From the NCBI GenBank assembly GCA_007375645.1, contig VMER01000001.1, positions 5,139 through 69,138 on the forward strand: a stretch of DNA of 64,000 nucleotides, given 5' to 3'. The stretch's first letter is position 1, and every line of letters starts with the position of its first letter. Source of the stretch: Parcubacteria group bacterium LiPW_15 (GTDB taxonomy: Bacteria > Patescibacteriota > Minisyncoccia > UBA6257 > 2-01-FULL-56-20). The position numbers were made by a program, and so were the translations under genes. Positions 5,069-59,179 of the stretch are shown here, one piece after another. Below the pieces are notes generated by a model, which did not search any database, was not told the DNA's origin, and saw nothing but the letters and a program-made list of their open reading frames with translations.

Positions 5069-5130
5069 ATTTATTTATATTAACCGGTCTTGCTAGGATT
5101 ATACCCTATAATGTATACTCAAGTGTAATC

Positions 5131-5661
5131 ATGCGGAAATTTCTTGCTTCCGTGCTCGAGGTTGCCGAAATCGCCCTTATCGCTTTGGGGGCGGTGTTCA
5201 TTGTGCGGCACTTTCTGGTGCAGCCCTTTTTGGTATCGGGAGCGAGCATGGCTCCGAATTTTGAGAACGGAGATTATCTGATGGTGGACGAGCTTACCTA
5301 CCGCGTGCGCGAGCCCCAAAGGGGGGAAGTCGTGGTTTTTCGCTATCCGAACGACAATACGACTTTCTTCATCAAGCGGATAATAGGTCTTCCCGGCGAG
5401 CATGTCGTGCTCTCTGACGGCAAGGTGGAGATAAACGGAAAGATTTTGGACGAAGGTTATCTTCCTCAAAATATTTCTACCCAAGGATCCGTCGATATTG
5501 CCTTAAAAACAGCCGAATATTTCGTGATGGGAGACAACCGTCCTTATAGCTTTGATTCCAGAAGCTGGGGCGTTCTCCCCAAAGATGATCTTGTCGGTGT
5601 CGCGAGATTGAGGCTTTGGCCGGTACAGGACTTTACCGTTTTCGCCGCTCCGAATTATTAA
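5131..5661 (+). CDS. lepB: Signal peptidase I
   Basis: TM anchor followed by the GASMAPNF (Ser box) and GDNRPYSFDSRSWG (box E) motifs. Start chosen at ATG 5131 inside longer ORF 4990. Confidence 0.85.
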   Translation: MRKFLASVLEVAEIALIALGAVFIVRHFLVQPFLVSGASMAPNFENGDYLMVDELTYRVREPQRGEVVVFRYPNDNTTFFIKRIIGLPGEHVVLSDGKVEINGKILDEGYLPQNISTQGSVDIALKTAEYFVMGDNRPYSFDSRSWGVLPKDDLVGVARLRLWPVQDFTVFAAPNY

Positions 5662-5666
5662 TTAAA

Positions 5667-6974
5667 ATGCCGGATAAAAAAATAAAAGAAAAAAAGACAA
5701 TTCCCGACGGATTAAAAACCCCCAAGGGTATGCACGATATACTTCCCGGAGAAGAGGTTTGGTGGGACAAATTGTATCGCGCCGCGGAGAAAATCAGCGA
5801 ATTTTACGGTTTTCATAAGATCGAGACGCCCATACTTGAGCAAGCGTCTCTCTTTGAGCGCGCCGTGGGCGAAGATACGGATATAGTACAGAAAGAAATG
5901 TATATCGTGAAAACCAAGGGTGGAGATGTCTTGGCCTTGCGCCCCGAGTGTACCGCGCCCGTCGCCAGGGCTTTTATTGAGCACAGCCTGGGCAAGTCTT
6001 CACCGCTTCAGAAACTTTGGTATTCCGGCCCGATGTTCCGCTATGAGAATCCACAGGCCGGGCGCTTTCGCCAATTTCACCAGATAGGCTTTGAGACGAT
6101 CGGCGGGCCTAACGATCCGATGTATGACGCCCAGATAATCATCACGACCCAGAGATTTTTGGAGGAGCTGAAAATAAAAAACCTAAACCTTAAAATTAAC
6201 TCCATCGGTTGCCGAGTTTGCCGGCCGATATATAAGCGGCAGCTTCAGACCTATTACAAGCCTCATTTGAAACAGCTTTGCGCAGATTGTAATCGGAGAT
6301 ATGCCACAAACCCTCTGCGCCTTTTGGATTGTAAAAACGAAAAGTGCCAGCCGTTCAAGGAAAAAGTTCCGAACTTTTTCGATAAGCTTTGCACTACCTG
6401 CAGTACTCACTTAAAGACTGTCTTGGAATACATGGATGAACTGAAGATCCCGTATTCTTTGGACAATCAACTGGTGCGGGGTTTGGATTATTACAGTCGT
6501 ACGGTTTTTGAGTTTTATGTGGAAGGCGACGGCATGAATCTGGGTGCCGTGGCCGGAGGCGGCCGATACGATTATCTTTTGGAGGCTTTGGGCGGACGCC
6601 CGACTCCGGGTGTTGGAGCCGCGCTTGGATCAGAACGTCTAATTGAGGTAATGAAGGCCCAGGGCGCGACTCCGCAGCTCAGAGTCCCGCGTAAAGTCTT
6701 CATGATCCACGTCGGCGAACAAGCCAAAAAGAAATCTTTGGGAATAATTGAGGAACTAAGGAGGGGAAATATATCCGTAACCGAGGCCTTAAGCCGCGAG
6801 TCTTTGAAGGCGCAGCTTAAGATGGCCGATCGGGAAGGAGCCCCCCTCGCGCTGATCCTCGGCCAAAAAGAAATTTTCGAGAATTCCATCATTATCCGCG
6901 ATCTCAAAAACAGCCTTCAGGAAAATGTCCCCCTAGAAAGGCTTGTCGAAGAAATTAAAAAGCGTCTCAAATAG
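5667..6974 (+). CDS. hisS: Histidyl-tRNA synthetase
   Basis: Class II motifs. GMHDILPGE, FRYENPQAGRFRQFHQ and GGGRYD are HisRS signatures. Start chosen at ATG 5667. Confidence 0.9.
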   Translation: MPDKKIKEKKTIPDGLKTPKGMHDILPGEEVWWDKLYRAAEKISEFYGFHKIETPILEQASLFERAVGEDTDIVQKEMYIVKTKGGDVLALRPECTAPVARAFIEHSLGKSSPLQKLWYSGPMFRYENPQAGRFRQFHQIGFETIGGPNDPMYDAQIIITTQRFLEELKIKNLNLKINSIGCRVCRPIYKRQLQTYYKPHLKQLCADCNRRYATNPLRLLDCKNEKCQPFKEKVPNFFDKLCTTCSTHLKTVLEYMDELKIPYSLDNQLVRGLDYYSRTVFEFYVEGDGMNLGAVAGGGRYDYLLEALGGRPTPGVGAALGSERLIEVMKAQGATPQLRVPRKVFMIHVGEQAKKKSLGIIEELRRGNISVTEALSRESLKAQLKMADREGAPLALILGQKEIFENSIIIRDLKNSLQENVPLERLVEEIKKRLK

Positions 6975-7385
6975 ATGGATTGTGTATTCTGTAAAATAGG
7001 AGGAAAAGAGATCCCGGCAGAAATAGTGTTTGAGAACGAAGAATCTTTTGCCATTCTTGATATCCATCCGGTCGCTCCGGGCCACACCATGGTAATCCCG
7101 AAGGGCCACGCACAAAATCTTTTGGATCTTCCGCGAGCTGAGGTTAAGCCGCTTTTTGAAGATCTGAAGACCGTGCTGCATAAGATATCTTCCGCGCTTC
7201 GCCCGGATGGATTTACAATAGGCATAAACCAGGGTTCGATCTCCGGCCAGGTGGTGGATCACCTTCACATACACATAATTCCCAGATTTGTCGGCGATAG
7301 CGGAGGATCGGTGCATTCCGTGGTCCAAAATCCGCCTGCCGAATCCCTTGCAGAGATCGCCGCAAAGATCAGAGCCGCCGACTGA
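6975..7385 (+). CDS. HIT family histidine triad protein
   Basis: HPVAPGHTMVIPKGH and HLHIHIIPR histidine triad motifs. Confidence 0.85.
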   Translation: MDCVFCKIGGKEIPAEIVFENEESFAILDIHPVAPGHTMVIPKGHAQNLLDLPRAEVKPLFEDLKTVLHKISSALRPDGFTIGINQGSISGQVVDHLHIHIIPRFVGDSGGSVHSVVQNPPAESLAEIAAKIRAAD

Positions 7386-7452
7386 CCCCTTGCCGGGTTA
7401 GGAGGAGGGGCATGCTTGCCAGGCCGCGTTTTTTCATCTAATATATATCCCT

Positions 7453-7668
7453 ATGATAGAAGTTCAGAAAAAAGAAGGAGAATCGGCATCAAGCCTTTAT
7501 TTCCGTTTTTCAAAGAAGGTCAGGAGAAGCGGCGTAATTTTGGAAGTCAGAAAACGCCGGTTTCATGACCGGGTTGTGAACAAGCGGAAGGTCCGGGAGT
7601 CCGCAAAACACCGCGCCAACAAGGCCAAGGAAATAACCAGACTTAAAAAGCTTGGCCTTTCCGCCTAG
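7453..7668 (+). CDS. rpsU: 30S ribosomal protein S21
   Basis: 71 aa, basic, with the pattern KKVRRSGVILEVRKRRFH...KHRANKAK typical of S21. Confidence 0.7.
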   Translation: MIEVQKKEGESASSLYFRFSKKVRRSGVILEVRKRRFHDRVVNKRKVRESAKHRANKAKEITRLKKLGLSA

Positions 7669-7761
7669 CTAAAGCGGTATTTAGTATTAGGTGTGCGGTA
7701 TTGGGTATTCGTGCGCGATACTTAATACTTGATACGAAATACGATATACTATCCTTACACG

Positions 7762-8208
7762 ATGTCTCTAAGCGAAAAAATTACGGAAGAGCTCAAGACC
7801 GCCATGAGGGCCGGGGATACCACATCCACCGGTCTTTTGCGTTTTCTTATTTCGCAGATAAGGGGAAAAGAAAAAGAAAAATTCGGAGCTCAAGAAGGAG
7901 TTTTGACCGACGAGGAGGTCCTCGATGTTTTTGCAAAAGAAGCCAAAAAAAGAAAAGAAGCAATCGCTCTTTTTGAGCAAGGCGGCCGGAAGGATCTCGC
8001 CGATAAAGAAAAAGCGGAGCTCGCAATGATTGAAAGATATCTTCCGGCCCAGCTTGGGAAGGATGAGATTCGGGTGGTAGTAAAGGAAATAATTTCCGGC
8101 GGCGCGAGCACCTTCCCGCTCGCGGTAAAAGAGGCAATGGCCCGTCTTAAGGGTCAGGCGGATGGCAAACTGGTTTCGGAGATAATAAAGGAAGAGCTCG
8201 GGAGTTAA
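7762..8208 (+). CDS. GatB/YqeY domain protein
   Basis: MSLSEKITEELKTAMRAGD....LPAQLGKDEI resembles YqeY. Start at ATG 7762 inside ORF 7729. Confidence 0.7.
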   Translation: MSLSEKITEELKTAMRAGDTTSTGLLRFLISQIRGKEKEKFGAQEGVLTDEEVLDVFAKEAKKRKEAIALFEQGGRKDLADKEKAELAMIERYLPAQLGKDEIRVVVKEIISGGASTFPLAVKEAMARLKGQADGKLVSEIIKEELGS

Positions 8209-8321
8209 AAGCAAACTTATCACGTAAGAAAATTTAGCGACCCGATATTATGAAAAATGGATTCAACTGCGCCCAACCATCATTTTTGGGATGAAAACGT
8301 CGGTTTTAATTTTCTAGCGGG

Positions 8322-8747
8322 ATGAAATCCGCGGAGGCTCAGCTCCGCCGAATGGCGGCAGAACTACTTCATCTCTTGGGCGAAAAAAAGTGCTTCGTCC
8401 AGATTTTTTTATTGAAAGATCGGGAGATGCGCAAACTTGGGAAAAAGGTGGGTGCCCTTCCGAGCCTTAAACGGTCCAAAATGGGCAGAGAGCTTCGAAA
8501 AGAGGAGCACCTGAACGTGCTTTCTTTTCCGGATGAGGTTCAGTTTCCCGACTTTGACGGCCGCCGGTCGCTTGGCGAGGTGTACTTGAACTACGATTGG
8601 GCGGAGAAAAAGACCGAGGTTCTTTCCTATCTGCTTATCCACGGAATTCTTCATCTTTTGGGCTACCATCACGGCTCAAAACGTGATACCATAAAAATGG
8701 AAAAACTGGAAAAGAAATTATGGCGTCACGTTTTATTGTCGGTCTAG
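8322..8747 (+). CDS. ybeY: Endoribonuclease YbeY (rRNA maturation)
   Basis: C-terminal HGILHLLGYHHG matches the H-x3-H-x5-H zinc-binding motif of YbeY. Confidence 0.65.
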   Translation: MKSAEAQLRRMAAELLHLLGEKKCFVQIFLLKDREMRKLGKKVGALPSLKRSKMGRELRKEEHLNVLSFPDEVQFPDFDGRRSLGEVYLNYDWAEKKTEVLSYLLIHGILHLLGYHHGSKRDTIKMEKLEKKLWRHVLLSV

Positions 8748-9970
8748 ATATCGGAACTGCCACGACGAAGGTCGCGGTCGCTGAACTTAGAAACGGTAAA
8801 ATAATTTTACGGGAATTATATAAAGAACCGACCGCCGGATTGCGGCACGGAGCGGTTTGCGATCTCGCAGAAGCGGTTCCAGCCGTGAGTCGGGCGCTCG
8901 AACGTTCTAAAAAGCTGGGGAGAGGCGTGCTGCGAAAAGTTTTTGCGAATGTCGGCACTCCGCAGATAAAAGTTCAGCACTCGAAAGGAATCGTGGCTGT
9001 TTCGCGGGCGGATAACGAAATATATCAGGACGACATAGATCGCGCGATCAAGGCGAGTGAGGCGGTGAATCTATCGCCGAATCGCATAATTATACACAAC
9101 ATTACGAGAGAATATATCGTGGACGGCGTGCCCGATATCGCCAATCCCTTAGGCCTTTCCGGTTCGCGCTTGGAAGTGGGGAGCGTCATCATTGATGCTT
9201 TCGCTCCGCACGTCAAAAGCGTAATGCGGGCCATAGAGCTTTCGGGCGGAGAGATCGGCGCTTTGATTTTTAATCCGCTCGCGGACGCGGCTTCATCTCT
9301 GAGTAAGAATCAAAAAGAATTGGGCGTGGCTATCGTGGATATCGGATTCGGAACAACGAGTCTCGCGGTTTATGAGGAAAATAAACTTACCGGAGTCCAG
9401 ATATTTCCGGTCGGTGCCGGCAATATTACGAATGATCTGGCCGTCGGTTTGCGGATTTCGGTGGCCGCCGCGGAAAATCTGAAACTTCAATATGGTTACG
9501 CCATTGCGAGCGAAGTCGGAAGCAAGGAGATCGTGGAACTCAAGAAATTCATACCTGAGGCCAAGAACACCGTGTCTCGCCGCTTCGTTTCGGAGATCAT
9601 AGAATCGCGCCTTGCGGAAATCCTGGAGTTCGTAAATAATGAGCTCAAACTAATGGGGAAAGCGGGACGTCTGGCCGGCGGAGTGGTCTTTGTCGGCGGA
9701 GGTTCAAAAATGCCCGGACTTACCGAATTAGCCAAGCAAGAGTTGAAATTGTCAAGCCAAATAGGATTCGCGAACGGGATCGGCAAGTGGGCGAAAGAGG
9801 GCGAAATGTCCATGGACGAATACTTGGAAGATCCGGAGTTCACCACGACGCTGGGACTCCTTCTTGAAGGCATACGGCAAGAGGGGTGGGAGCCGAGTGA
9901 AAAAGAATCGCTTTCGACAATTTTTTCTTCCAAAGGGTTAAAGGGTATCTTCCGCTCCTTCCTTCCCTGA
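8720..9970 (+). CDS. ftsA: Cell division protein FtsA
   Basis: Actin-like ATPase. IVGLDIGTATTKVAVAE N-terminus, conserved phosphate blocks. Placed directly upstream of ftsZ. Confidence 0.9.
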   Translation: MASRFIVGLDIGTATTKVAVAELRNGKIILRELYKEPTAGLRHGAVCDLAEAVPAVSRALERSKKLGRGVLRKVFANVGTPQIKVQHSKGIVAVSRADNEIYQDDIDRAIKASEAVNLSPNRIIIHNITREYIVDGVPDIANPLGLSGSRLEVGSVIIDAFAPHVKSVMRAIELSGGEIGALIFNPLADAASSLSKNQKELGVAIVDIGFGTTSLAVYEENKLTGVQIFPVGAGNITNDLAVGLRISVAAAENLKLQYGYAIASEVGSKEIVELKKFIPEAKNTVSRRFVSEIIESRLAEILEFVNNELKLMGKAGRLAGGVVFVGGGSKMPGLTELAKQELKLSSQIGFANGIGKWAKEGEMSMDEYLEDPEFTTTLGLLLEGIRQEGWEPSEKESLSTIFSSKGLKGIFRSFLP

Positions 9971-9989
9971 GGTCTCTTACAAATAAAAA

Positions 9990-11207
9990 ATGGCAAAAAA
10001 AAGAAAGATACAAAGAACGGCTCGTAAAGAGACCGTGTCCCGGGAGCCTATCGCCAATATTAAAGTTGTCGGTATTGGAGGTGGAGGCGGCAATGCCGCG
10101 TCCCGCATGAGCCGTAATTTTATTCGCGGCGTTGAGTTTATTGCCATTAATACCGATCATCAGGACCTGGATCACTCTGAGGTTAGAAAAAAAATATATA
10201 TCGGCAAAAATCTGACGAGAGGCTTGGGTTCCGGCATGAATCCGGATCTCGGACGCCAAGCGGCTGAGGAGAATCGTTCCGAGATCGCAGAAACTCTTAA
10301 AGGGGCGGATATTGTGTTTCTGACCGCCGGCTTCGGCGGGGGAACGGGCACCGGTGCTACTCCGATAGTGGCCGAAGTGGCCAAGCAGAACGGGGCGCTT
10401 ACTGTTGCGGTTGTGACTAAGCCGTTCGCGTTCGAGGGTTCTCAGCGCGCAAAGATCGCTTTGGAAGGATTGGCTAAGTTAAAAGATAAAGTGGACGCGC
10501 TTATTGTGGTTCCGAACGACAGGATATTTTCAATAATCAGCAAGGACACGCCGGTACTTAAAGCCTTTGAGGCGATTGATGAAGTTTTGAGAAACGCCCT
10601 CCATGGGATAGTTGAGCTCATCATTACTCCGGGAATAATCAATGTGGATTTCGCGGACGTCAAAGCCATTATGCAGGATGCCGGTTCCGCCATAGTCGGA
10701 GTTTCTTTGGCTTCCGGACAGGATCGCGCGGTCAAAGCCGTTAACGAGGCCTTACGTTCGCCGCTCTTAGAAGTCACGGCCGAGGGTGCGAAAGGAGTGA
10801 TCCTCGGCATTTCCGGAAGCCGAGATCTTAAAATGGCAGAAATAAATGAAGCCGCGAAATTGGTTGCCCAAGCTGCGGATCCGGCGGCCAGAATAATTTT
10901 CGGCGCATATCATGATCGGAGTCTCAAAGACAATCAGATCAAGATAACTCTGATCGCGGCCGGATTTAATGGAGCTTCCGCCGCCAATTCTCTTTTCGGG
11001 GCTGCGGCGCTCTCTGCCGACAAGCAATTTTTCTCCCCGAAATTCGAGAAATTCGAAAAACCTTCCGACTCCCCATTTGCTCCGAAAGAAAATCCACAGC
11101 CTGCGCTGAATTTGAATAAAAATCCGTTGCCGGAAACCAAGAAACCGGAAAAACAGGAAGACGATGTTTGGGATATCCCGACCTTTCTTCGTAAACGGAA
11201 AAAATAA
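9990..11207 (+). CDS. ftsZ: Cell division protein FtsZ
   Basis: Tubulin signature GGGTGTG (FLTAGFGGGTGTGATPIVAEVAK), T7 loop, C-terminal linker and tail. Confidence 0.95.
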   Translation: MAKKRKIQRTARKETVSREPIANIKVVGIGGGGGNAASRMSRNFIRGVEFIAINTDHQDLDHSEVRKKIYIGKNLTRGLGSGMNPDLGRQAAEENRSEIAETLKGADIVFLTAGFGGGTGTGATPIVAEVAKQNGALTVAVVTKPFAFEGSQRAKIALEGLAKLKDKVDALIVVPNDRIFSIISKDTPVLKAFEAIDEVLRNALHGIVELIITPGIINVDFADVKAIMQDAGSAIVGVSLASGQDRAVKAVNEALRSPLLEVTAEGAKGVILGISGSRDLKMAEINEAAKLVAQAADPAARIIFGAYHDRSLKDNQIKITLIAAGFNGASAANSLFGAAALSADKQFFSPKFEKFEKPSDSPFAPKENPQPALNLNKNPLPETKKPEKQEDDVWDIPTFLRKRKK

Positions 11208-11221
11208 AAAGAAATAAATAA

Positions 11222-11248
11222 GCCCTCCGGCATTCGCCGGGGGGCTTT
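11222..11248. terminator. Bidirectional intrinsic terminator between ftsZ and the convergent ORF
   Basis: 10-bp GC stem gccctccggc/gccgggggggc followed by a T-rich tract on the + strand and an A-run before it. Confidence 0.5.
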
Positions 11249-11257
11249 CGGTTCGGT

Positions 11258-11932
11258 TCAACAGTCTCTGAGTTCTTTCGCCCGACGCTTGATCTCTTCA
11301 ATGATCCGGAGCGCCTCGTCTCTCGGGGTAAGTCTTGGCGGTACCACGATTCCCGGGAAACGCAGCGGAGGAATTCCGGGCCAATCCCTTCTTATCAGCG
11401 CGGCAAACCCGTTACGAAGAAAGACAATTCCGGTTGCGCCACAGGAGAAGAGTTGCCCGTTCCGGTCCGCCTGGTGGTAGCTGGAAATCAGGCGGGAGTT
11501 TCGGCTGAGTTCTTTGAGAAGAGGGCCAGGCCTCTTCCGAGCCGACCTAGGCCTATCGATTCCCCAGTTCGGTGCGCAAGACTTCAGTTCATGGAATTTC
11601 TCTGCGTGTTTGCGAACAACTTCTTCGAACTCGTTCGCAAGCATTTCCACATTGGTTCTTCCGGTTACCGCAGTTGCGTAGATGTAGGGACATTTTCGAA
11701 AGTGCGTAGGCAGAGCATTGGGATGGGTCTTGATCTGAATCGGGAAGAATAGTCCATTCCGGAGAAACAGCGCGAGATCTATCCTGATCAAATCCAGCTC
11801 GCTACCTCTCTTCGGATGGAAAACATCCGCGATCATCGGCCATCTAGCCATGAGCATTTTCACGGCCATCATTCCCTTGTTTTCAGTGACCTCGCAGATG
11901 AATTCACACCAGGGAAGCCTCTTGTCGTTCAC
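11258..11932 (-). CDS. Hypothetical protein, GC-elevated orphan
   Basis: 224 aa ORF convergent on ftsZ, about 56% GC versus about 50% flanks. No confident family. Has an R-x6-H segment (VRKHAEKFH) and an acidic/hydrophobic core (ELDLIRIDLALF). Confidence 0.45.
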   Translation of the reverse strand: MNDKRLPWCEFICEVTENKGMMAVKMLMARWPMIADVFHPKRGSELDLIRIDLALFLRNGLFFPIQIKTHPNALPTHFRKCPYIYATAVTGRTNVEMLANEFEEVVRKHAEKFHELKSCAPNWGIDRPRSARKRPGPLLKELSRNSRLISSYHQADRNGQLFSCGATGIVFLRNGFAALIRRDWPGIPPLRFPGIVVPPRLTPRDEALRIIEEIKRRAKELRDC

Positions 11933-12016
11933 GTGGGCCTCCTTTCGACGATTTACAAGCGTATCTACCGGGATTCTATATCCCGGACTGTTGCTTTTGC
12001 AAGTCGGATTGATTAA

Positions 12017-13078
12017 CTAATCTTCCACTTCTTCCGTTATCGGCTTTTCGAGAGCCATGGGTTCTATGCCCATTTTTTCGCCGCTTATTTTATAAACATC
12101 TTTGTCTATCTTTCCGAGCTCCTTGTGCGCGCGGTTAAAAGCATTAACCGTGGTTCCCAAGTTATCACCGAGTTTGTTCATATAGGTGTCGTAAGCGCTC
12201 AAGTGTTTCCCGAGTTGATAAACTTGGGATTGTATTTCCTTCGCCGACTCCTCGATCTTTAGGGCGCGCAAACCCTGCATCACGGTTTGAAGATAGGCGA
12301 AGAAAGTGGTGGGGGAGACAACCATAACTTTTTTCTTGTTTGCATATTCTATTAAATTTTCGGTGTTGCTCTTAATGACTCCTACTTTGTTTATCAAAAG
12401 ATCGTAGTAAACACCTTCCGAAGGGATGAACATGAAGGCAAAGTCCAGTGTTCCTTCCTGCGGTCTTATGTATTTGGAGGTTTCGTCTATCCGGATCTTT
12501 AAGTCATTGGCAAAAGCTACCTCATAGCGGTCTCGGTCTTCTTTTGTTTGAGCCTCAAGTATGCGATTGTAATTTTCCAAACTGAATTTGGAGTCTATCG
12601 GGATTATTCCTTCTTTCCCGCCTGCTTTGGTAAAGATGACCGCGTCCACAATTTCCCCATTGCTGAATGGATATTGGAGTTTAAACACTTCCGGTGGCAA
12701 GACATTTTTTAAAACTGTTTCCAAATAATATTCGCCCAAAACTCCGCGCTGTTTAGGATTCTTTAAAATGTCTTGAAGGCTTCGCAATTGTTCGCCGACC
12801 CCGGATATCTGCTTTTGGGACTCTCCGACTTTGGTGAGCTCCTTGGTTATCTCCTGGATTATCCTGCGGCTCTCCGAGAGGTCGCTATGCATGACTCTGG
12901 TAGACTCCCCAAGTTTTGTGTCCAAGGCTTTGGTAAGCTCGTTTATTTGGTTTTGGAGAAGCAGCATAGACTGGTTGTCCTGCGCCTCCGGTTTTTTACC
13001 AGTCAGTTTAAAAATAGCAAAAGCCGCGACCGCAAGGGCCACGATAGTTATGGCAAGGAGGGGAATGACTATTTCCAT
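12017..13078 (-). CDS. rmuC: DNA recombination protein RmuC
   Basis: N-terminal TM, long coiled-coil region and a C-terminal RmuC-like domain. Overall architecture matches RmuC. Confidence 0.7.
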   Translation of the reverse strand: MEIVIPLLAITIVALAVAAFAIFKLTGKKPEAQDNQSMLLLQNQINELTKALDTKLGESTRVMHSDLSESRRIIQEITKELTKVGESQKQISGVGEQLRSLQDILKNPKQRGVLGEYYLETVLKNVLPPEVFKLQYPFSNGEIVDAVIFTKAGGKEGIIPIDSKFSLENYNRILEAQTKEDRDRYEVAFANDLKIRIDETSKYIRPQEGTLDFAFMFIPSEGVYYDLLINKVGVIKSNTENLIEYANKKKVMVVSPTTFFAYLQTVMQGLRALKIEESAKEIQSQVYQLGKHLSAYDTYMNKLGDNLGTTVNAFNRAHKELGKIDKDVYKISGEKMGIEPMALEKPITEEVED

Positions 13079-38035: not shown

Positions 38036-39064
38036 CTAAACTCCCAGGTCGCCCCTCGCAATAAGCGGGCGTTTCTTTTTTCTTAAATAATTGAAATACC
38101 CGGCGGCGCCGATCATAGCGGCATTGTCGGTGTTAAAAGTAAAACCCGGGACCAAAAAGATCATTTTTTCTTTTTTTACTTCGCTTCCCAGCTTTTCTCT
38201 TAAGTACATACTCGCCGCGACTCCACCGGCCATGATGATGGACTTGGCTTTAAATTCTTTGGCGGCGCGCATCGCCTTTTTTATCAGTACTTCGGTCGCG
38301 GCATTTTGGAACGAAGCGGCAACATCGGCTGGATTAGCGCTCGGATTATCCCGGCAATAATATAGTACGGAAGTTTTAAGCCCCGAGTAGCTGAAATCAT
38401 AATTTTTATCGTGGAGCATCGGGCGAGGAAACTCAATCGCATTTTCATTTCCTTCTCGCGAGAGTTTCTCTATCTGCGGTCCGCTCGGATAGGGGAGTTT
38501 CAGAATTCTCGCGACTTTATCGAATGCTTCGCCCACGGCGTCGTCGCGGGTTTCACCGAGCTTTTTCCAGGTTTTAATATCTTTCATAAGAAGCAATATG
38601 GTGTGTCCGCCGGATACCAAAAGCGCCACGGACGGAAAAACCTTTTTTGCGTCATACTTTTTCTTTGGGTCCAAAAGAAAGCTCCAAAGATGTCCCTCCA
38701 TGTGGTTTGCTCCGATCAACGGCTTCTTCCAATCCTTAGATAATTTTTTGGCGAACTCGATTCCCGCCCAAAGTGCGGGTTCGAGTCCAGGGCCAACGGT
38801 TATGGCCATAAGAGAGATCTTTTTCCATTCCGCTTTTTCTTTCGTGCCCTCACCGAACATCTCTCTATATAATATGGGCAGATTCTTAATGTGTTCGCGC
38901 TTAGCGATATTCGGGACCACTCCGCCGAAGGGTTCGTGAAGTTTTATCTGCGAGGTTATTAAATGCTTTAAAACTTTGAATTTCGGCGCACTAAACCCGC
39001 CTTTGGCTTCCAATATGGATAGGGAGGTTTCGTCGCAACTCGTTTCTATGGCGAGTATTCGCAT
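38036..39064 (-). CDS. tsaD: tRNA N6-adenosine threonylcarbamoyltransferase
   Basis: MRILAIETSCDETSLSIL N-terminus and Kae1/YgjD fold. Start at the ATG encoding MRILAIE (39062..39064 on the plus strand), 77 codons inside the long ORF. Confidence 0.85.
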   Translation of the reverse strand: MRILAIETSCDETSLSILEAKGGFSAPKFKVLKHLITSQIKLHEPFGGVVPNIAKREHIKNLPILYREMFGEGTKEKAEWKKISLMAITVGPGLEPALWAGIEFAKKLSKDWKKPLIGANHMEGHLWSFLLDPKKKYDAKKVFPSVALLVSGGHTILLLMKDIKTWKKLGETRDDAVGEAFDKVARILKLPYPSGPQIEKLSREGNENAIEFPRPMLHDKNYDFSYSGLKTSVLYYCRDNPSANPADVAASFQNAATEVLIKKAMRAAKEFKAKSIIMAGGVAASMYLREKLGSEVKKEKMIFLVPGFTFNTDNAAMIGAAGYFNYLRKKKRPLIARGDLGV

Positions 39065-39090
39065 GGGTGTATGATATCTACTCTTTGATT

Positions 39091-39169
39091 GTTTGACAAA
39101 GAGCGCCACTAGCCGTAGTTTGGAGACAGCGAAACAGCTGACAAAAATTGAAATCACAGGAGGTGCTTT
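39091..39169 (+). promoter_or_regulatory. Promoter/leader copy 1 (TTGACA-17-TAGTTT plus conserved 5' leader)
   Basis: gtTTGACAaagagcgccactagccgTAGTTTggagacagcgaaacagctgacaa is about 90% identical over 60 nt to 39801..39860. SD aggagg precedes GTG 39170. Confidence 0.6.
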
Positions 39170-39748
39170 GTGGGCGAAGCCTTCGCGTGGCTCGGAAAGA
39201 TATTCGAGCTCATTACTGCCCTCATTCCTCGGCCGTTCATTATCGACGCGACCCAGGAGGGGGTGAAGTTCAAGTACGGCAAATACATAGTTCACCTTTT
39301 GCCTGGCGTCTACGGTTATTGGCCCCTTGTCACCAAAGTCGTCGCTATCCAGGTAAAGCGCCAGGCGGTGGTCTTAAAGCCACAGGTCCTGACGACCAAA
39401 GACGGTAAATCGGTGATCATGGGGACGTTAATCGCCTACACCATAATTGATGCCGTGGCTGCTTTGACCGAGGTCGACAATCTTAGCGAAACTCTGTTTG
39501 AGGTGTCCCAGGGTGCCGTGCCGGGGGTTGTTGCCGGGAAAACCCTGCAACAGTTGATCCATGATGTTTCCGAGATTAGCGACGCGGAGTCGGGCAATGG
39601 CGTGATGACCATCCTTGACTTGGAACTTTGCGAAAGGGTGAGTTCCATTCTGCGGGGCTTTGGAGTGAATGTCCTGTACTGCAAGGTGACCGACTTCTCG
39701 TCTTGTCGCGTTCTGAACATTTCCGGTGATTTCGGCAGCTCGAAATAA
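39170..39748 (+). CDS. SPFH/band-7 domain protein (short, no TM)
   Basis: GVKFKYGKYIVHLLPGVYGYWPLVTKVVAIQVKRQAVVLKPQVLTTKDGKSVIMGTLIAYTIIDAVAAL follows the stomatin/prohibitin SPFH core pattern. GTG start, about 55% GC. Confidence 0.5.
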   Translation: MGEAFAWLGKIFELITALIPRPFIIDATQEGVKFKYGKYIVHLLPGVYGYWPLVTKVVAIQVKRQAVVLKPQVLTTKDGKSVIMGTLIAYTIIDAVAALTEVDNLSETLFEVSQGAVPGVVAGKTLQQLIHDVSEISDAESGNGVMTILDLELCERVSSILRGFGVNVLYCKVTDFSSCRVLNISGDFGSSK

Positions 39749-39763
39749 CCAAACCCACAGTCC

Positions 39764-39787
39764 GCCCGCTCAGGAGCGGGCTTTTTT
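39764..39787 (+). terminator. Intrinsic terminator
   Basis: gcccgctcaggagcgggc followed by tttttt. Confidence 0.85.
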
Positions 39788-39800
39788 GATCCTTAAAAAT

Positions 39801-39881
39801 GTTTGACAAAGAGCGGTCTTAGCCGTAGTTTGGAGGCAGCGAAAGAGTTGATAACTACGCAGAAAAAAAGGAGAAAAGAAA
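39801..39881 (+). promoter_or_regulatory. Promoter/leader copy 2
   Basis: gtTTGACAaagagcggtcttagccgTAGTTTggaggcagcgaaagagttgataa. SD aaggag precedes GTG 39882. Confidence 0.6.
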
Positions 39882-41516
39882 GTGAAAGATCCAGCGAAAC
39901 TGCAGTTTTTCTTCCAACCATTTTCGGAGCTGACACTTGATGCGAAATGTCCACTGCTATTCGTCGTTTTCGAGGAGCAGGCGGACATGATCATCGGGAA
40001 GAGGTTCCCGGAAGTGGAGGAGATGCGTCAGCGCATCGACAACATCACCCGCAAGGATGACGAACAGACTGTATCGATCTTTTCGCTTATGCGGGAAGAG
40101 AAGGCAGTCCCGGCCGGTCTCGTTTATATCGAGTATCCTTGGCGAAGGAAGAGGGTCAAGCGCAGTTTGGATTTCGGTAGCATTAATTTCTACCGGAAAC
40201 TCTTGGAACGTACAACAGCTGCCACCGGGCAACTCCGGGAAATGGGTTTCAGTGAGATGACGATCTTGCTTCCCGGCAGGTTTCATCCAGAGAACCTGAA
40301 AAACGATTCCCAACGAGAAGTGCTCGAAATGTTCGTGAAAACAATGGTCGAGGCCATCGTTTACGCGAACGGTACCCTGGATGAGTTTCGAAGCACTCCC
40401 GATCCGCAGATCACCAAGGTTAGCTTCACATACTTCGGACAGTACGAACGAGTGATTCTCAATTTCTTCAATCGTGCTATCGGTGCGGGCGAAGAGATGG
40501 GGGAAGCGCTAGTTGAGGTCAGGAGATTCACAGAGCTTCCCGGGAACGAAGCCTATCCTCTCAAATTGGCTTCGGAATTTGTCGGAAGGACCATAGCTCC
40601 GCTTACAAGCGCTTCGCCGAATTGGCACAAGATCCACGATCATCGTTTTTCCGCGAACGTGAAGGCAGCGCTTCTCTATGGCGCTGAGGGCCTCGCGAAG
40701 CGTGGGTTCGGACTCATAACGGCGGTGGGGCAAGGCAGCAAATACGAACCCTGCCTTTTGAAGCTTCACTACAAGCCGAAGAAGCGTTCCAGGCCGGTAA
40801 AGAAACTGACTCTCATCGGTAAGGGCGTTACCTTTGATTCGGGCGGAGTGGATCTGAAGGGCGCAGACTCCTACGACAACATGCATCATGACATGGCCGG
40901 TGCAGCCACTGTTGTTGGAGTGCTGAAGCTTGCTGACGATTTGCGCCTGCCGGTGGAGATTGTGGCCCTTTTGCCTCTGGTCGAGAACACAATCGGTTCG
41001 AAGGCTACCCGGCCATACGACATCGTTCGTGCGTATGACGGTCAGACGGTAGAGGTTCGCAATACGGATGCCGAGGGGCGGCTGATTCTCGCGGATGCGA
41101 TCGCCTATTCGGAGAAGAACATCCGACCAAACTGCACGGTGACCGTGGCTACTCTCTGCGACATGAGCGACTTCGCACCGGACTTTTTGAAGGTCTTGGT
41201 GAACGACAAAGATCTGGAGCGGAAGGTTCGTCTCGCGGAAAAGCGCTCCAACGAAAAGATGCTGCTCTTTCCTCCGTTCGAGCACTTTAATGGTGTCTCA
41301 CTCGCTTTCGTCGGCGGGGCCGCCGACCTCAAGAATGACAACTCGTATTACTACCATTCCGGCATGGTATTTCTCGGCGAATTCTTTAAGTGGGATCCGT
41401 CGCCGTGGGTGTTCGTGGACGTATCCGAAGTATTCGAAAAGGATGCGCAAGAATACGCGGCAGGTCCCGGCTTCGGCGTTCGTTTCACGTGGAACCTCGT
41501 CAAGCAGTTTGCCTGA
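39882..41516 (+). CDS. pepA: Leucyl aminopeptidase, M17 family
   Basis: M17 signature NTDAEGRLILADAI and GKGVTFDSGGVDLK. GTG start, about 56% GC. Confidence 0.85.
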   Translation: MKDPAKLQFFFQPFSELTLDAKCPLLFVVFEEQADMIIGKRFPEVEEMRQRIDNITRKDDEQTVSIFSLMREEKAVPAGLVYIEYPWRRKRVKRSLDFGSINFYRKLLERTTAATGQLREMGFSEMTILLPGRFHPENLKNDSQREVLEMFVKTMVEAIVYANGTLDEFRSTPDPQITKVSFTYFGQYERVILNFFNRAIGAGEEMGEALVEVRRFTELPGNEAYPLKLASEFVGRTIAPLTSASPNWHKIHDHRFSANVKAALLYGAEGLAKRGFGLITAVGQGSKYEPCLLKLHYKPKKRSRPVKKLTLIGKGVTFDSGGVDLKGADSYDNMHHDMAGAATVVGVLKLADDLRLPVEIVALLPLVENTIGSKATRPYDIVRAYDGQTVEVRNTDAEGRLILADAIAYSEKNIRPNCTVTVATLCDMSDFAPDFLKVLVNDKDLERKVRLAEKRSNEKMLLFPPFEHFNGVSLAFVGGAADLKNDNSYYYHSGMVFLGEFFKWDPSPWVFVDVSEVFEKDAQEYAAGPGFGVRFTWNLVKQFA

Positions 41517-41525
41517 ACCTATCCC

Positions 41526-41557
41526 GCCTCGGCCAAAAAGCCGAGGCGTTTTATTTT
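41526..41557 (+). terminator. Intrinsic terminator
   Basis: gcctcggc-caaaaa-gccgaggc followed by gttttatttt. Confidence 0.85.
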
Positions 41558-41630
41558 GACTTAAATGCTAAAATTAACTATTGTATAGACGCGTTTGGCA
41601 AATCTTTTGAGGCTCGCCAAAGCAAAACAT

Positions 41631-41702
41631 GGCGCTATCGTCTAGTGGCTAGGACACCGCCCTTTCACGGCGGGAACAGGGGTTCGATCCCCCTTAGCGC
41701 TA
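41631..41702 (+). tRNA. tRNA-Glu (anticodon TTC)
   Basis: Manual cloverleaf: acceptor GGCGCTA/TAGCGCT (G1:U71 wobble), D-arm GTCT-AGTGGCTA-GGAC, anticodon stem CCGCC/GGCGG with loop CTTTCAC, T-arm AGGGG-TTCGATC-CCCCT. Confidence 0.85.
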
Positions 41703-41718
41703 CGTGTTTAGAGAAAGA

Positions 41719-43227
41719 ATGCTAAATAGGTTTTACGAGATTCTTCCGGGCAGTCTTGCCTGGGCCACCCTTATTGGTATGGTCGTTTTTTCCTGGGTAC
41801 TGCCGACGGCGGTTTCCGTTTTTATAATTCTTTTTGATATCTACTGGCTTTTGAAGACCGTCTATCTTTCATTACACCTGCGTTCGACTTTCTCCGAAAT
41901 GAAGCAGAACATGGCCACCGATTGGCTTTCGCGACTCAAAAAAGAAAAAACCGGCTGGGAAAATATCGAACACCTGATAATTTTCCCGATGTATAAAGAG
42001 CCGTATGAGGTGGTCAAAGAAAGTTTTGAAAGTTTAACGCACGCAAATTATCCGAAAGAAAAAATGATGGTGGTTTTGGCCATCGAAGAATTGGCGGGGG
42101 ATTTTGCCAAAGATGTCGCGGAAAAAACTAAAAAAGATTTTGAGAAGAGGTTCGGCGCGTTTCTTATAACTGTCCACCCTAAAGATTTACCCGGGGAGAT
42201 TCCCGGCAAGGGAGGCAACGAAACTTGGGCTGCCAAAGAAGCAAAAAAAATTCTTATTGATGGAAAGCTAGAGCCGCAAAATGTTCTAGTCTCGTCTTTT
42301 GATGTGGACACTCAGATATTTTCGGAATATTTCGGGAAACTCACTTACACCTTCCTTTCCGAAGAAAATAAATTGCGGGCAATCTACCAACCAATTCCAT
42401 TTTTCACGAATAATGTTTACGACAGTCCGGCCATCGCACGAGTTATATCTTTTTCTTCTACTTTCTGGCAGATGATGCAGCAATCGAGACCCGAAAGACT
42501 TACTAGCTTTTCCTCGCAATCGATTCCCCTGAGCGCGCTTATGGATGTGGGTTTCTGGCACACGGATATGGTCTCTGAGGACTCCCGCATTTTCTGGCAG
42601 GGATATTTAGCTTATCACGGAGATTTTCGCGTCGTTCCGCTTCACTATCCCGTTTCTATGGACGCGAATGTCGCTCACACTCTTTGGGGGACTATGAAAA
42701 ATCTTTACAAACAGCAAAGGCGTTGGGGCTGGGGCTGTGAGAATATCCCGTATATGTTGGGTGGCTTTAGGAAGGACCCGAAGATCCCGGCCGCGAAAAA
42801 AAGATACTGGACATTTCAGGTGCTCGAGGGATTTCATTCCTGGGCTACGAACTCGATCATGATCTTCGCGCTCGGCTGGCTCCCGGTGTATCTTGGCGGA
42901 AAAACTTTTAATCTTTCATTGTTGTCGCACAGTTTGCCGGACATCACTCGGCTTATAATCCAAATTTCCATGCTTGGTATCGCAAGCTCCGCCATTTTGG
43001 GCATCATGCTTCTGCCTCCGAAGCCCGTTTGGTTCAAACCCTACCATTACGCTCTTTATGTTTTGCAGTGGGCGCTTATCCCGGTTTCGCTCATAATTTT
43101 CGGTGCGATTCCAGGACTTGAGGCGCAGACGAGACTGATGCTCGGCGGAAAGTTTAGGTTGGGATTTTGGGTAACCCCAAAATCCCGAAAGGGGGTCGGG
43201 GGAGAGCGGAAGGGCTCCCCCGTGTAA
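41719..43227 (+). CDS. Membrane glycosyltransferase, GT2-like (cellulose-synthase-like motifs)
   Basis: N-terminal TMs. DVDT (DxD-like) and QQRRWGWG (QxxRW) motifs. C-terminal TMs. Start ATG 41719 preferred over GTG 41704, which abuts the tRNA. The last 12 codons lie in repeat copy B. Confidence 0.55.
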   Translation: MLNRFYEILPGSLAWATLIGMVVFSWVLPTAVSVFIILFDIYWLLKTVYLSLHLRSTFSEMKQNMATDWLSRLKKEKTGWENIEHLIIFPMYKEPYEVVKESFESLTHANYPKEKMMVVLAIEELAGDFAKDVAEKTKKDFEKRFGAFLITVHPKDLPGEIPGKGGNETWAAKEAKKILIDGKLEPQNVLVSSFDVDTQIFSEYFGKLTYTFLSEENKLRAIYQPIPFFTNNVYDSPAIARVISFSSTFWQMMQQSRPERLTSFSSQSIPLSALMDVGFWHTDMVSEDSRIFWQGYLAYHGDFRVVPLHYPVSMDANVAHTLWGTMKNLYKQQRRWGWGCENIPYMLGGFRKDPKIPAAKKRYWTFQVLEGFHSWATNSIMIFALGWLPVYLGGKTFNLSLLSHSLPDITRLIIQISMLGIASSAILGIMLLPPKPVWFKPYHYALYVLQWALIPVSLIIFGAIPGLEAQTRLMLGGKFRLGFWVTPKSRKGVGGERKGSPV

Positions 43228-56079: not shown

Positions 56080-56448
56080 ATGAAGAAAAAGTATTACAAC
56101 AAACTTGTTCGAGATAGGATACCCGAAAAGATCAGAAGTAAGGGCAAGGACTGTGAGATTAAGAAGCTGAAATCCAAAGAATTTGAAACGGAACTTCTCA
56201 AAAAAGTTGGTGAAGAAGCGAGCGGTCTTTTGTCGGCGAAGAATCTCGAGGAGCTTATATCGGAACTTGCTGATATTTTGGCCGTGATAGACGAGATAAA
56301 AAAGATAAAGAAAATATCTCAGAAGCAAATCTTAGAAGCAATGCAGTCAAATTTTAAGCGGAAAGGAGGATTCGATAAAAGACTGTTTCTTTTTTGGTCC
56401 TCTGATGTTGGATATAAAACCAACGAACGGTCGTATAAAAAAAGATAA
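56080..56448 (+). CDS. MazG-like nucleotide pyrophosphohydrolase (small all-alpha NTP-PPase)
   Basis: YNKLVRDRIPEKI ... EELISELADILAVIDEI resembles the MazG/HisE-like fold. Confidence 0.5.
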   Translation: MKKKYYNKLVRDRIPEKIRSKGKDCEIKKLKSKEFETELLKKVGEEASGLLSAKNLEELISELADILAVIDEIKKIKKISQKQILEAMQSNFKRKGGFDKRLFLFWSSDVGYKTNERSYKKR

Positions 56449-58192: not shown

Positions 58193-58652
58193 GATTGGGA
58201 TCACGTTGTTATTATTTAATTAAGCCCGCCTGGTTTCAATAACGAAACCAGACTTCGGAGATATTTTTGGATAAAAAGAGGCGCCCCGATGGGGCGCCGT
58301 TGTCTGCTACTTTTACGCTCGCAGACGTGCAACCTCGGTGGGCTAATTCCGAGGATATGCCCGAGAACAAAATGAGTGGATGATTCTACTTTTCGGACAG
58401 AACGGGCTTCCGGCCCGTCTCCCTTTTAAGGGGAGCCTCATCCTTTTGGAATGTTTCGTCCGTCCGCCGACTGCCGGGGAATCAACCCGGCTTACCGAAT
58501 GGCCCGCTAGATTTCGCACTTTTGATTGCTAATCTGCTTGACGGCTGTTCAGCTGTCGGTTATTTGGCATCACCCTTTCTCCGCTCGAGTTGGCCTCGTG
58601 TTGCGTGGGGCTGTTTCGAGTGACTTGTTCGAGGTGGAGAGATGGTCGTAGG

Positions 58653-58967
58653 TTAGCCGACGACGACCAACCCTCTCTGGTTGGAGGCGCTCCAGCTGAG
58701 GAGGCGCTTGGTCGCGAGAGCCTTCTCCGCTTCCATGGCCACCACCTCCAGGATCTTCTGAGCCTTGGCGACCCTCTCCTTCCAGGTTCGGGTCCCCCCG
58801 AGGCGGAACCGGACGAGGGTGACGGCCTCCCTGGCCTCGTCCATCTGGACGGTGAGGCGTTCGAGATCGTCCTTGGTGTCGACAGCCGCGAGCTGGGTGA
58901 CCAACTCGCAGGCCGCGACGAGCGGCTGTTCGGTGACGGGGGTGACGGAAGTCGTCTTCTGGTCCAT
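58653..58967 (-). CDS. Small hypothetical protein encoded in a roughly 65% GC segment
   Basis: 104 aa. Strong SD (GAGGAGG) 6 nt before the ATG. High-GC3 codons. Sequence MDQKTTSVTPVTEQPLVAACELVTQLAAVDTKDDLERLTVQMDEAREAVTLVRFRLGG... Confidence 0.35.
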   Translation of the reverse strand: MDQKTTSVTPVTEQPLVAACELVTQLAAVDTKDDLERLTVQMDEAREAVTLVRFRLGGTRTWKERVAKAQKILEVVAMEAEKALATKRLLSWSASNQRGLVVVG

Positions 58968-58985
58968 GATGTGGACCTCCTCTCG

Positions 58986-59062
58986 TTTAGTCCCGGAGTG
59001 AAGCGGGCCTGCCTGCCGGCAGGCAGGGATAAGTTTAGGCGCCGCTTTACTCCGGAACTAAA
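58986..59062. repeat. Long imperfect inverted repeat enclosing the second copy of the 20-nt palindrome
   Basis: Arms tttagtcccggagtgaagcg / cgctttactccggaactaaa around CCTGCCTGCCGGCAGGCAGG (59008..59027). Confidence 0.75.
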
Positions 59063-59179
59063 TAGGATTTAAGTTTCTGCCGGAAATTATAGCATGGCCA
59101 CAAGAAAATGTCAATAGCCCTCAAAAAGCCTCAAAAATAAGGTTTTTTTAAGCATTTATTTTCAGTCGTTGTCGCGAAC

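Follow-up and report, generated by a model that had tools for sequence, protein, structure and literature searches.

A link between SPFH proteins and proteases is classical: the two are operon partners, or the SPFH protein interacts with FtsH (PMC2636767). The described systems that come closest to the locus analyzed here are the stomatin-NfeD (STOPP) operons and the HflK/C-FtsH and QmcA-YbbJ complexes for its SPFH gene, the M17 leucyl aminopeptidases (bovine lens leucyl aminopeptidase, LAP; E. coli PepA and PepB; Plasmodium M17) for its peptidase gene, and tRNA-adjacent islands and phage morons for its surroundings. The locus lies in a 64,000-nucleotide (nt) stretch of DNA from Parcubacteria group bacterium LiPW_15 (contig VMER01000001.1; the whole stretch is called the window). 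It consists of a short SPFH/Band-7 gene and an M17 aminopeptidase gene between tsaD and tRNA-Glu, and the SPFH and M17 proteins are 100% identical to entries named after this organism. An earlier note, made from the sequence alone, had described the two genes as a GC-rich island that was inserted at tRNA-Glu and shares an operator or RNA element. Our analysis indicates that the locus probably arose by ordinary local gene turnover and not through the import of a two-gene island that has a special regulator.

With the stomatin-NfeD (STOPP), HflK/C-FtsH and QmcA-YbbJ systems, the LiPW_15 locus shares the SPFH alpha/beta fold, a putative N-terminal hydrophobic helix and an adjoining peptidase gene. 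Unlike stomatin, HflK/C, prohibitin and flotillin, the LiPW_15 SPFH protein has no C-terminal helix of the kind that builds cages. Its neighbor is a soluble M17 or, in related genomes, a JAB-like protein instead of NfeD or FtsH, and the genes appear to form separate transcription units, which is not the organization of the stomatin-NfeD/STOPP operons. The M17 protein resembles bovine lens LAP, PepA/PepB and Plasmodium M17 in its PF00883 domain with the conserved metal-binding and catalytic motifs, but has a clade-specific N-terminus of ~250 amino acids (aa) in place of PF02789.

As in tRNA-adjacent islands, the content just upstream of the tRNA gene differs among close relatives (M17, or a JAB-like gene of type A or B), and in some relatives a small GIY-YIG element is found together with a duplicated half of the tRNA. 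Unlike in such islands, there is no integrase among the annotated genes, no attachment-site repeats and no multi-gene cargo. One of the two supposed island genes (SPFH) appears to be vertically inherited, and the exchange seems to use flanking homology, provided by the promoter core (left) and the tRNA region (right). Phage morons resemble the SPFH unit in being single genes with their own promoter and terminator, in having a higher GC content than their surroundings, and in having many homologs in viral contigs. The SPFH unit differs from morons in that its promoter block occurs in none of 71 viral loci, and in that it has the same fixed chromosomal position in several species and no other prophage genes nearby.

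RESULTS

The SPFH protein has relatives that are 85–88% identical, encoded on contigs of several independent assemblies. The window was compared with four sister loci (L001–L003 and L007), which are metagenome-assembly fragments, and with three further relatives that carry a JAB-like gene (L098–L100). In L001–L003 and L007, the genes for HSP20, PrsW, ValRS and TsaD (all on the minus strand) are followed by a promoter-like block (P1), the SPFH gene, a terminator, a ~190-aa JAB-like gene, a second terminator and tRNA-Glu. The flanking proteins of the sisters are 89–90% (TsaD), 88–91% (ValRS), 88–90% (PrsW), 85–86% (HSP20) and 91% (GT2) identical to those of the window. At 85–87% identity between the window and these sisters, the SPFH protein has therefore diverged in step with its housekeeping flanks (85–91%), and no faster than they have. 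Because the SPFH gene is syntenic in the sisters and has diverged like its neighbors, it appears to have been inherited vertically and not to be a recent insertion. By this comparison, the SPFH unit is evidently an old resident that was present in the common ancestor of LiPW_15 and at least two sister lineages.

The M17 gene behaves differently, as tblastn detected no counterpart of it in the sister loci. The homology between the window and the sisters ends after the leader of a second promoter-like block (P2), at ~39855, and returns at the putative tRNA-Glu promoter, at ~41556. Only the M17 cassette between these points (~39855–41555) appears to be specific to LiPW_15. It stands where the sisters have the JAB-like gene, and evidently replaced that gene instead of being inserted into an empty junction of tsaD and tRNA-Glu.

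The two-gene island of the earlier note is contradicted by these comparisons, as the SPFH gene is syntenic in L001–L003 and L007 behind the same P1 block and only the M17 gene is absent from them. The suggestion that something lineage-specific lies beside tRNA-Glu held, the M17 cassette being found there in place of the JAB-like gene. In the comparison with sister genomes that the note had proposed, tsaD and tRNA-Glu were not adjacent; the retained SPFH gene spoke against the island, and the missing M17 gene, with a JAB-like gene instead, spoke for a lineage-specific part. The nearest-neighbor searches proposed for both proteins gave the SPFH relatives at 85–88% identity, located at the same locus in the sisters, and for M17 a best match of 54%, with relatives named as Patescibacteria-group.

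The features of the locus in the window, with coordinates and strand, are as follows.

38036–39064 (−): tsaD, the left conserved flank, transcribed divergently; PF00814 TsaD, 260 bits
39071–39099 (−): putative tsaD promoter TTGTCA-17-TATCAT; promoter scan, 10/12 matches; the same sequence in L007
39090–39144 (+): block P1; −35 hexamer TTGACA at 39093–39098, 17-nt spacer, TAGTTT at 39116–39121, GGAG and a leader of ~19 nt
39158–39163 (+): Shine-Dalgarno sequence AGGAGG of the SPFH gene, read from the sequence; 6 nt before the GTG and kept in the sisters
39170–39748 (+): short SPFH/Band-7 gene, 192 aa, GTG start; Pfam Band_7/SPFH, E 3.8e-17, 63.3 bits
39764–39790 (+): putative intrinsic terminator of the SPFH unit; hairpin at 39764–39781, stem of 7 pairs (6 G-C), then TTTTTT
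39800–39854 (+): block P2, a paralog of P1; −35 hexamer at 39803–39808, −10-like hexamer at 39826–39831, P1-type leader
39855–41555 (+): lineage-specific segment with the Shine-Dalgarno region, open reading frame (ORF) and terminator of M17; sister homology stops and resumes at its ends
39882–41516 (+): M17 aminopeptidase gene, 544 aa, GTG start behind GGAG; Peptidase_M17, E 5.6e-70
41525–41558 (+): putative intrinsic terminator of the M17 unit; hairpin at 41525–41548, stem of 9 pairs (8 G-C), then a T run
41556–41584 (+): putative tRNA-Glu promoter TTGACT-17-TATTGT; promoter scan, region conserved in L001, L002 and L100
41631–41703 (+): tRNA-Glu(TTC); ARAGORN, and Rfam RF00005 at 62 bits

Several parts of the earlier description were borne out. 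The identities of both genes were confirmed by the Pfam profile search (E 3.8e-17 for SPFH and E 5.6e-70 for Peptidase_M17), both genes start with GTG behind good Shine-Dalgarno sequences (AGGAGG for SPFH and GGAG for M17), and each is followed by its own terminator-like hairpin (39764–39781 and 41525–41548). A hairpin homologous to that of the SPFH unit was found in L001 and L007, and the sequence of the M17-unit terminator is unrelated to the JAB-gene terminators of the sisters. Right-flank homology with the sisters starts at the putative tRNA-Glu promoter. The neighbors of the SPFH gene are tsaD and M17, a terminator stands between the SPFH gene and the next gene, and no co-transcribed partner of the NfeD or FtsH type was found. 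The region is likely to consist of two independent single-gene transcription units between the divergent tsaD and tRNA-Glu.

The gene that occupies the slot upstream of tRNA-Glu in the sisters encodes a ~190-aa JAB/MPN-like metallopeptidase. Its Pfam Prok-JAB/JAB matches were below threshold (E 6e-4 to 1e-2), its HSHP...SD motif resembles the JAMM metal site, and the protein is named RPN8/RPN11-like proteasome lid subunit in one source. Two types were distinguished, which are only 30% identical to each other: type A in L001–L003, L100 (60%) and L099 (39%), and type B in L007 and L098 (89%). By their glycosyltransferase gene, L098 and L100 are mutually closest (89.7% nucleotide identity, compared with 80–83% to the window and L001). 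L098 has a JAB gene of type B and L100 one of type A, and their terminators and tRNA-upstream sequences differ as well. As such close relatives hold different JAB types, the cassette upstream of tRNA-Glu appears to have been exchanged among close relatives. The M17 gene of LiPW_15 is best read as a third alternative occupant of the slot upstream of the tRNA-Glu promoter. For the JAB-like protein of L007, no relative was found in IMG/VR, and a 25-nt probe of the tRNA-Glu promoter had no match in JGI metagenome contigs.

The L098 and L100 loci, as far as their sequences extend, have no SPFH gene. At their left end is an 87-residue fragment of a proteasome-subunit homolog (PF00227, 27.8 bits; L098 1–261 and L100 2–262, both on the minus strand), and tRNA-Glu and the same glycosyltransferase gene follow JAB. 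The two proteasome-subunit homologs are 78% identical and divergent from the JAB genes at 401–982 (L098) and 401–970 (L100). In L099 (2254–4452), the JAB-like gene, 39% identical to type A, is flanked by an M32 carboxypeptidase gene, which directly precedes it, and a PD-(D/E)xK-like gene, which follows it.

In three of the related loci (L001 8450–8840, L002 ~11390–11780 and L098 1040–1482), a gene for an 85-aa GIY-YIG nuclease (PF01541, 56.6 bits) has a duplicated 5' half of tRNA-Glu on one side and the complete tRNA-Glu on the other. This arrangement was not found in the window. In L002, the complete tRNA copy beside this gene was called as a 77-nt tRNA-Glu(CTC) and not as TTC. The nuclease gene and the tRNA half together may represent a small mobile element with tRNA-Glu as its target. 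In the window, the search of 38900–41800 gave no tRNA-derived repeat. No integrase was found in a Pfam scan of 15 window ORFs between 24414 and 50236, which reached 5 kb or more on either side, nor in the precomputed Pfam annotation of the sister loci. The view of tRNA-Glu as an integration landmark therefore lost its footing, with neither a tRNA-derived repeat nor an integrase among the annotated genes.

The duplicated promoter-like block of the earlier note is real. It is a 55-nt direct repeat (39090–39144 and 39800–39854) with 47/55 identical positions (85%), which includes TTGACA, the 17-nt spacer and TAGTTT. Each copy is composed of TGTTTGACAAAG, 13 variable bases, CGTAGTTTGGAG and then ~19 similar bases; the block motif can also be written TGTTTGACAAA-N13-CGTAGTTTGGA, and the leader CAGCGAAASAGYTGAYAA. 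The 33-nt core TTGACAAAGAGCG-N4-TAGCCGTAGTTTGGAG is present in exactly two copies in the 64 kb of the window, compared with none in 100 shuffles. A looser motif, TTGACA-N17-TAGTTTGG with at most 2 mismatches, returned the same two copies only in this 64-kb search, which covered 13% of the LiPW_15 contig. TTGACA is a perfect −35 hexamer, and TAGTTT matches TATAAT at 3/6 positions, keeping A2 and T6. Eight promoter regions were compared. Five copies agree fully in the hexamers and the 17-nt spacing but differ in the spacer sequence, and this pattern of conservation suggests a putative core promoter of the sigma-70 type.

The P1 block is orthologous in L001–L007. P2 of the window is P1-like over all 55 nt, with 46/55 positions identical to P1 of L001. 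Its spacer shares bases with P1 of L001 that P1 of the window has lost, so P2 of the window would not be a very recent copy of P1 of the window. P2 of L007 combines a P1-like core (28–30/36) with a JAB-type leader (15/19 to P2 of L001). P2 of L001 is a different promoter (TTGACT-17-TAGATT). Compared by eye, it is similar to L100's native JAB promoter over the −10 hexamer and on into the leader; a fixed-register count does not show this likeness, as the two are offset by a 16-nt spacer. Across these lineages, the P1-like block before the second gene appears to be a local paralog that pre-dates the arrival of M17 and varies in extent.

A strict form of the motif gave 10 hits in 185,579 species genomes (one genome for each), by estimate about as many as chance would give for a motif with 18 specified bases. 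Among these hits, a single relative was represented, L001 (contig CAZHBZ010000015), with the hit at the SPFH promoter. Its assembly, CAZHBZ01, is the only one from a relative in this genome collection, and no further strict copy was found in it beyond the SPFH promoter. A match in a Kerfeldbacteria genome lies upstream of an unrelated radical-SAM-like ORF and was rejected as unrelated. Nor did the looser motif occur in the M17-relative loci and viral loci retrieved by that stage of the analysis, and for this reason the block appears to have come with neither M17 nor a phage. The genome-wide motif search proposed in the earlier note was run on the 64 kb, with two copies only, and on CAZHBZ01, with the SPFH promoter only. 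Neither placed the motif upstream of other genes, and a regulon found no support.

On the left side, the −35 hexamer of P1 lies within the palindromic TTTGACAAA in both the window and L007. This palindrome also serves the minus-strand TTGTCA-17-TATCAT (39062–39099 with the tsaD start), in which TTGTCA overlaps the −35 hexamer of P1 and TATCAT ends 7 nt before the ATG of tsaD, an arrangement that is kept in L007. In L001, there are ~160 extra base pairs between tsaD and P1. P1 is, on this reading of the sequence, half of a putative back-to-back promoter pair, and the mRNA of tsaD may be leaderless.

The transcribed part of the block gave little indication of a regulatory element. Rfam returned no match at E ≤ 1 except the tRNA. 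The leader folds showed no stable or common structure, with z values of −2.5 for P1, +0.45 for P2 and −0.4 to +0.8 for the sisters, and the stem of the P1 fold involves coding sequence. Five distinct leader sequences exist, and those of P1 and P2 in the window are identical at 15/19 positions. The P1 leader of L007 matches at 7/19 positions ungapped and at ~14/20 once the alignment's 1-nt gap is allowed for, and the reading that the P1 leader is not conserved among orthologs was dropped on account of this gapped alignment. The shared operator or RNA element of the earlier note was not recovered, as there was no Rfam match, no common fold and, in the sequences searched, no further motif copy. 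What the note itself had named as the outcome that would speak against it is what the data suggest: the leaders resemble each other through local duplication, and neither other copies nor a regulator site were found. A third leader-like 12-mer, CAGCGAAACTGC, lies in the first M17 codons of the window (39892–39903), with 11/12 positions identical to CAGCGAAACAGC of the P1 leader; the chance of such a match in 2.9 kb is roughly estimated at ~0.01.

The GC content is 52.5% over 39091–41702 and 53.4% for each of the two ORFs. The window has a mean of 48.5% with a per-gene standard deviation of 3.4%, which places the SPFH and M17 genes at about z +1.4. The ~55% that had been contrasted with ~48% in the flanks was therefore an overestimate of a modest excess that does exist (52.5% compared with 48.5%). 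Within the region, 55–56% is reached only in 40500–41500, and similar or higher values occur elsewhere in the window. At third codon positions (GC3), M17 (0.645) is at the top of 58 listed ORFs, and SPFH has a value of 0.68. Other GC3-rich genes in the window encode the ribosomal proteins S11 (0.61) and S9 (0.59) and MreB (0.59), and the GC3 of SPFH is likewise raised in the sister genomes (0.60–0.65). In the proposed check of GC and codon usage, GC3 was raised in both genes, in favor of the island, and this rise was shared by S11, S9, MreB and the sister SPFH genes, against it. Because SPFH is equally GC3-rich in the sisters, where it is long resident, the composition is no proof of recent import. 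The raised GC3 may reflect high expression or old phage ancestry. Two other ORFs of the window deviate more in composition than the SPFH/M17 region: a 160-aa ORF at 58590–59072 without a Pfam hit (62.7% GC, z +4.2) and a 122-aa ORF at 56080–56448 with 37% GC (z −3.4).

The M17 protein matches PF00883 at 236.5 bits over residues 250–535, which identifies the catalytic domain of family M17. The motifs GKGVTFDSGG, DLK, DMAGAA and NTDAEGRL, which hold the catalytic and metal-binding residues of M17 enzymes, align to solved M17 structures (6ome and bovine LAP), and the catalytic domain is intact. In residues 1–249, there is no Pfam match, and the canonical N-terminal PF02789 is lacking. This N-terminal region of ~250 aa is common only to a clade of ~545-aa proteins (44–54% identical over the protein), and all named members of this clade are from the Patescibacteria group. 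The relatives within the clade are also without PF02789, and more distant M17 proteins have it. The best non-self match among 5.8 billion proteins, in a database that includes the sister-contig assemblies, was 54% identical, and all NCBIfam equivalog scores were below their cut-offs.

In other Patescibacteria, the M17 relatives stand in housekeeping contexts and have no SPFH neighbor. In L024, M17 is located between an aminoacyl-tRNA synthetase-like gene and ClpP, within a cluster that runs from an S26 peptidase gene to FtsA-FtsZ (4190–13064). The window has a cluster of S26 peptidase, aminoacyl-tRNA synthetase-like, further genes, FtsA and FtsZ at 4990–11207, without M17. This cluster may be the older home of M17 in the phylum. 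Between the window and L024, the identities are 53% for M17, 54% for FtsZ and 51% for the S26 peptidase. A 172–173-aa protein is encoded ~100 nt upstream of M17 in L026 (5374–5892), L101 (6308–6829), L102 (4974–5495) and L103 (2542–3063), and its copies in L026 and L101 are 77% identical. As it has no Pfam match at all, it is not recognizable as an SPFH or a JAB protein.

The SPFH protein (192 aa) consists of a putative N-terminal hydrophobic helix and an SPFH domain, without a coiled-coil tail. It belongs to PF01145, with a Pfam score of 63.3 bits against a cut-off of 23.6. The AlphaFold model was built from six sequences and is poor overall (mean pLDDT 55), and only its core was used. This core (residues 65–175, pLDDT 65–86) matches stomatin SPFH domains (Foldseek E 3e-8), with a target TM-score of 0.88 and a root-mean-square deviation of 1.3 Å to 8gn9; stomatin was found by the sequence search as well. 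The chain ends ~17 residues past the last SPFH strand, with no C-terminal coiled coil or long helix. The full-length chains of stomatin, HflK/C and prohibitin were covered over only ~113–145 columns, with target TM-scores of 0.2–0.36. The N-terminus is hydrophobic, and M1, A4, F5, W7, L8, G9 and F12 are invariant in six aligned family members. A helix was modeled over residues 4–17, at a pLDDT below 50.

A profile search of 1.84 billion representatives returned 248 relatives of the SPFH protein at E ≤ 1e-30, nearly all of them 170–200 aa long and matching end to end. SPFH relatives are also encoded on 71 IMG/VR viral contigs, mostly at full length and with 20–41% identity (48 of them at ≥30%). 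The order of the genes was readable in 32 viral loci. In about two-thirds of these, SPFH comes last in a conserved block of genes on the same strand, which is composed of a ~500–850-aa ORF, a ~131-aa ORF, a ~850–1100-aa ORF, in some loci a 61–81-aa ORF, and then SPFH. The opposite-strand neighbors in L027 encode a DNA polymerase exonuclease subunit and a dNTP pyrophosphohydrolase, and a weaker SPFH relative lies among Endonuclease VII and 5'-nucleotidase genes. In PHROGs, SPFH had only a weak match to phrog_200, annotated as lipoprotein. No match was obtained by tblastn of SPFH in 50,697 deposited phage genomes, so the phage link comes from IMG/VR contigs only. The chromosomal SPFH gene is probably a domesticated phage-type gene. 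Two further features of the viral loci were seen: the block of very large ORFs (e.g., L027 110–6585) has almost no PHROG or Pfam annotation, and a strong hairpin lies directly 5' of SPFH in most of the viral loci inspected (the L027–L097 set).

DISCUSSION

Local gene turnover, which we regard as the probable origin of the present locus, could have proceeded as follows. The first unit, composed of P1, the SPFH gene and its terminator, would be long resident. The second unit would be a replaceable slot directly upstream of the tRNA-Glu promoter, in which a JAB-like cassette was swapped for a Patescibacteria-type M17 that brought its own ribosome-binding region and terminator. P2 would then be a local paralogous copy of the SPFH promoter with ~19 nt of leader, rather than one of a dispersed set of regulatory elements. 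Cassettes would be swapped through homologous recombination in flanking homology, for which the promoter core serves to the left of the slot and the tRNA-Glu region to its right. The JAB exchange between L098 and L100 indicates that such swaps do happen, and homologous recombination is their presumed route. With sigma-70-type promoters of one kind and hairpin terminators as insulation, both genes would be expressed in parallel without a dedicated regulator. All components of the locus are of known kinds, as far as their sequences tell: an SPFH protein, an M17 peptidase, a duplicated promoter and a variable slot by a tRNA gene.

Several observations weigh against parts of this explanation. The absence of M17 from the sisters is read from metagenome assemblies, and an M17 identity of 53–54% would fit an import from another Parcubacterium just as well as it fits a native gene that was relocated here and lost in the sisters. 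Further copies of the block were searched within 64 kb of the 481-kb LiPW_15 contig. TAGTTT is a poor −10 hexamer, and the consensus promoter scan listed neither P1 nor P2, so that both are putative promoters. The P1 leader is conserved at 15/19 and ~14/20 positions among orthologs, compared with 50–62% at the third codon positions of SPFH, and some function of this 5' untranslated region, as a leader or an operator, is conceivable. Among the 149 best of the 248 relatives, none is more than 44% identical to the SPFH clade of the window, and transfer from phage to chromosome is the presumed direction.

The alternative that survives best, though we consider it unlikely, is that the SPFH scaffold works with the adjoining soluble metallopeptidase, be it JAB-like or M17. 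The partner would have been displaced non-orthologously, and the promoter copy kept by selection for joint expression. The downstream neighbor is a metallopeptidase in 3/3 SPFH-bearing lineages, a P1-like core precedes the second gene in 2/3 of them, and the HflK/C-FtsH and QmcA-YbbJ (NfeD) complexes are among the structural matches of SPFH. The classical tie of SPFH proteins to proteases counts in the same direction. However, L098 and L100 have the JAB-like gene in this tRNA-Glu slot but no SPFH gene at the locus, in L099 the JAB-like gene stands beside the M32 peptidase gene, and the M17 relatives elsewhere are without an SPFH neighbor. Moreover, the phage SPFH relatives with annotated neighbors show no adjoining peptidase, each gene at the LiPW_15 locus has its own terminator, and L001 is without a P1-like second promoter.

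A wider form of this proposal joins several elements and is, taken as a whole, rather improbable. It would see, in these very small genomes, a dedicated cassette-exchange slot upstream of tRNA-Glu, which accepts metallopeptidases (JAB type A, JAB type B and M17) behind a copy of the promoter of a minimal SPFH protein domesticated from a phage type, with SPFH and the peptidase forming a membrane-scaffolded proteolysis or phage-exclusion module and the GIY-YIG element possibly promoting the exchange.

Even less credit can be given to a conflict or defense locus, in which a phage-derived SPFH protein (acting, e.g., in superinfection exclusion) would stand beside a fast-exchanged effector slot at a tRNA hotspot. 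The frequency of the SPFH family in viral contigs, the hypervariable second slot (JAB types A and B with 30% identity, or M17) and the GIY-YIG element at the tRNA-Glu gene of relatives would fit such a locus. In contrast, PADLOC gave no hit for SPFH or M17, the M17 protein is of the housekeeping type with intact catalytic motifs and has core contexts elsewhere, and SPFH evolves no faster than the housekeeping flanks.

The joint arrival of SPFH and M17 as a horizontally acquired GC-rich island at tRNA-Glu, with a shared operator or RNA element, is very improbable and appears largely refuted by the sister synteny: the GC3 values of both genes, highest in the window (0.645 and 0.68), the adjoining tRNA gene and the 15/19 identity of the P1 and P2 leaders are outweighed by the synteny of the SPFH gene, and a divergence like that of its flanks, in sisters that lack M17, by the equally high GC3 of SPFH in the sisters and the GC3-rich ribosomal-protein genes, by the absence of an integrase among the annotated genes and of tRNA-derived repeats, and by the absence of an Rfam match, of a common fold and, in the sequences searched, of a further motif copy.

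Local turnover beside a resident SPFH unit implies no new mechanism at this locus. Two groups of genes may deserve a closer look. One is the large, apparently undescribed family of ~185-aa SPFH-only proteins, which is common in uncultivated phages, and the other is the pair of a proteasome-like and an Rpn11-like gene in Parcubacteria. The locus also calls for caution in island calling, as raised GC3 and a nearby tRNA gene alone do not mark an imported island. For the organism, the slot framed by a conserved promoter and a tRNA gene would represent gene turnover between close relatives in a streamlined genome.

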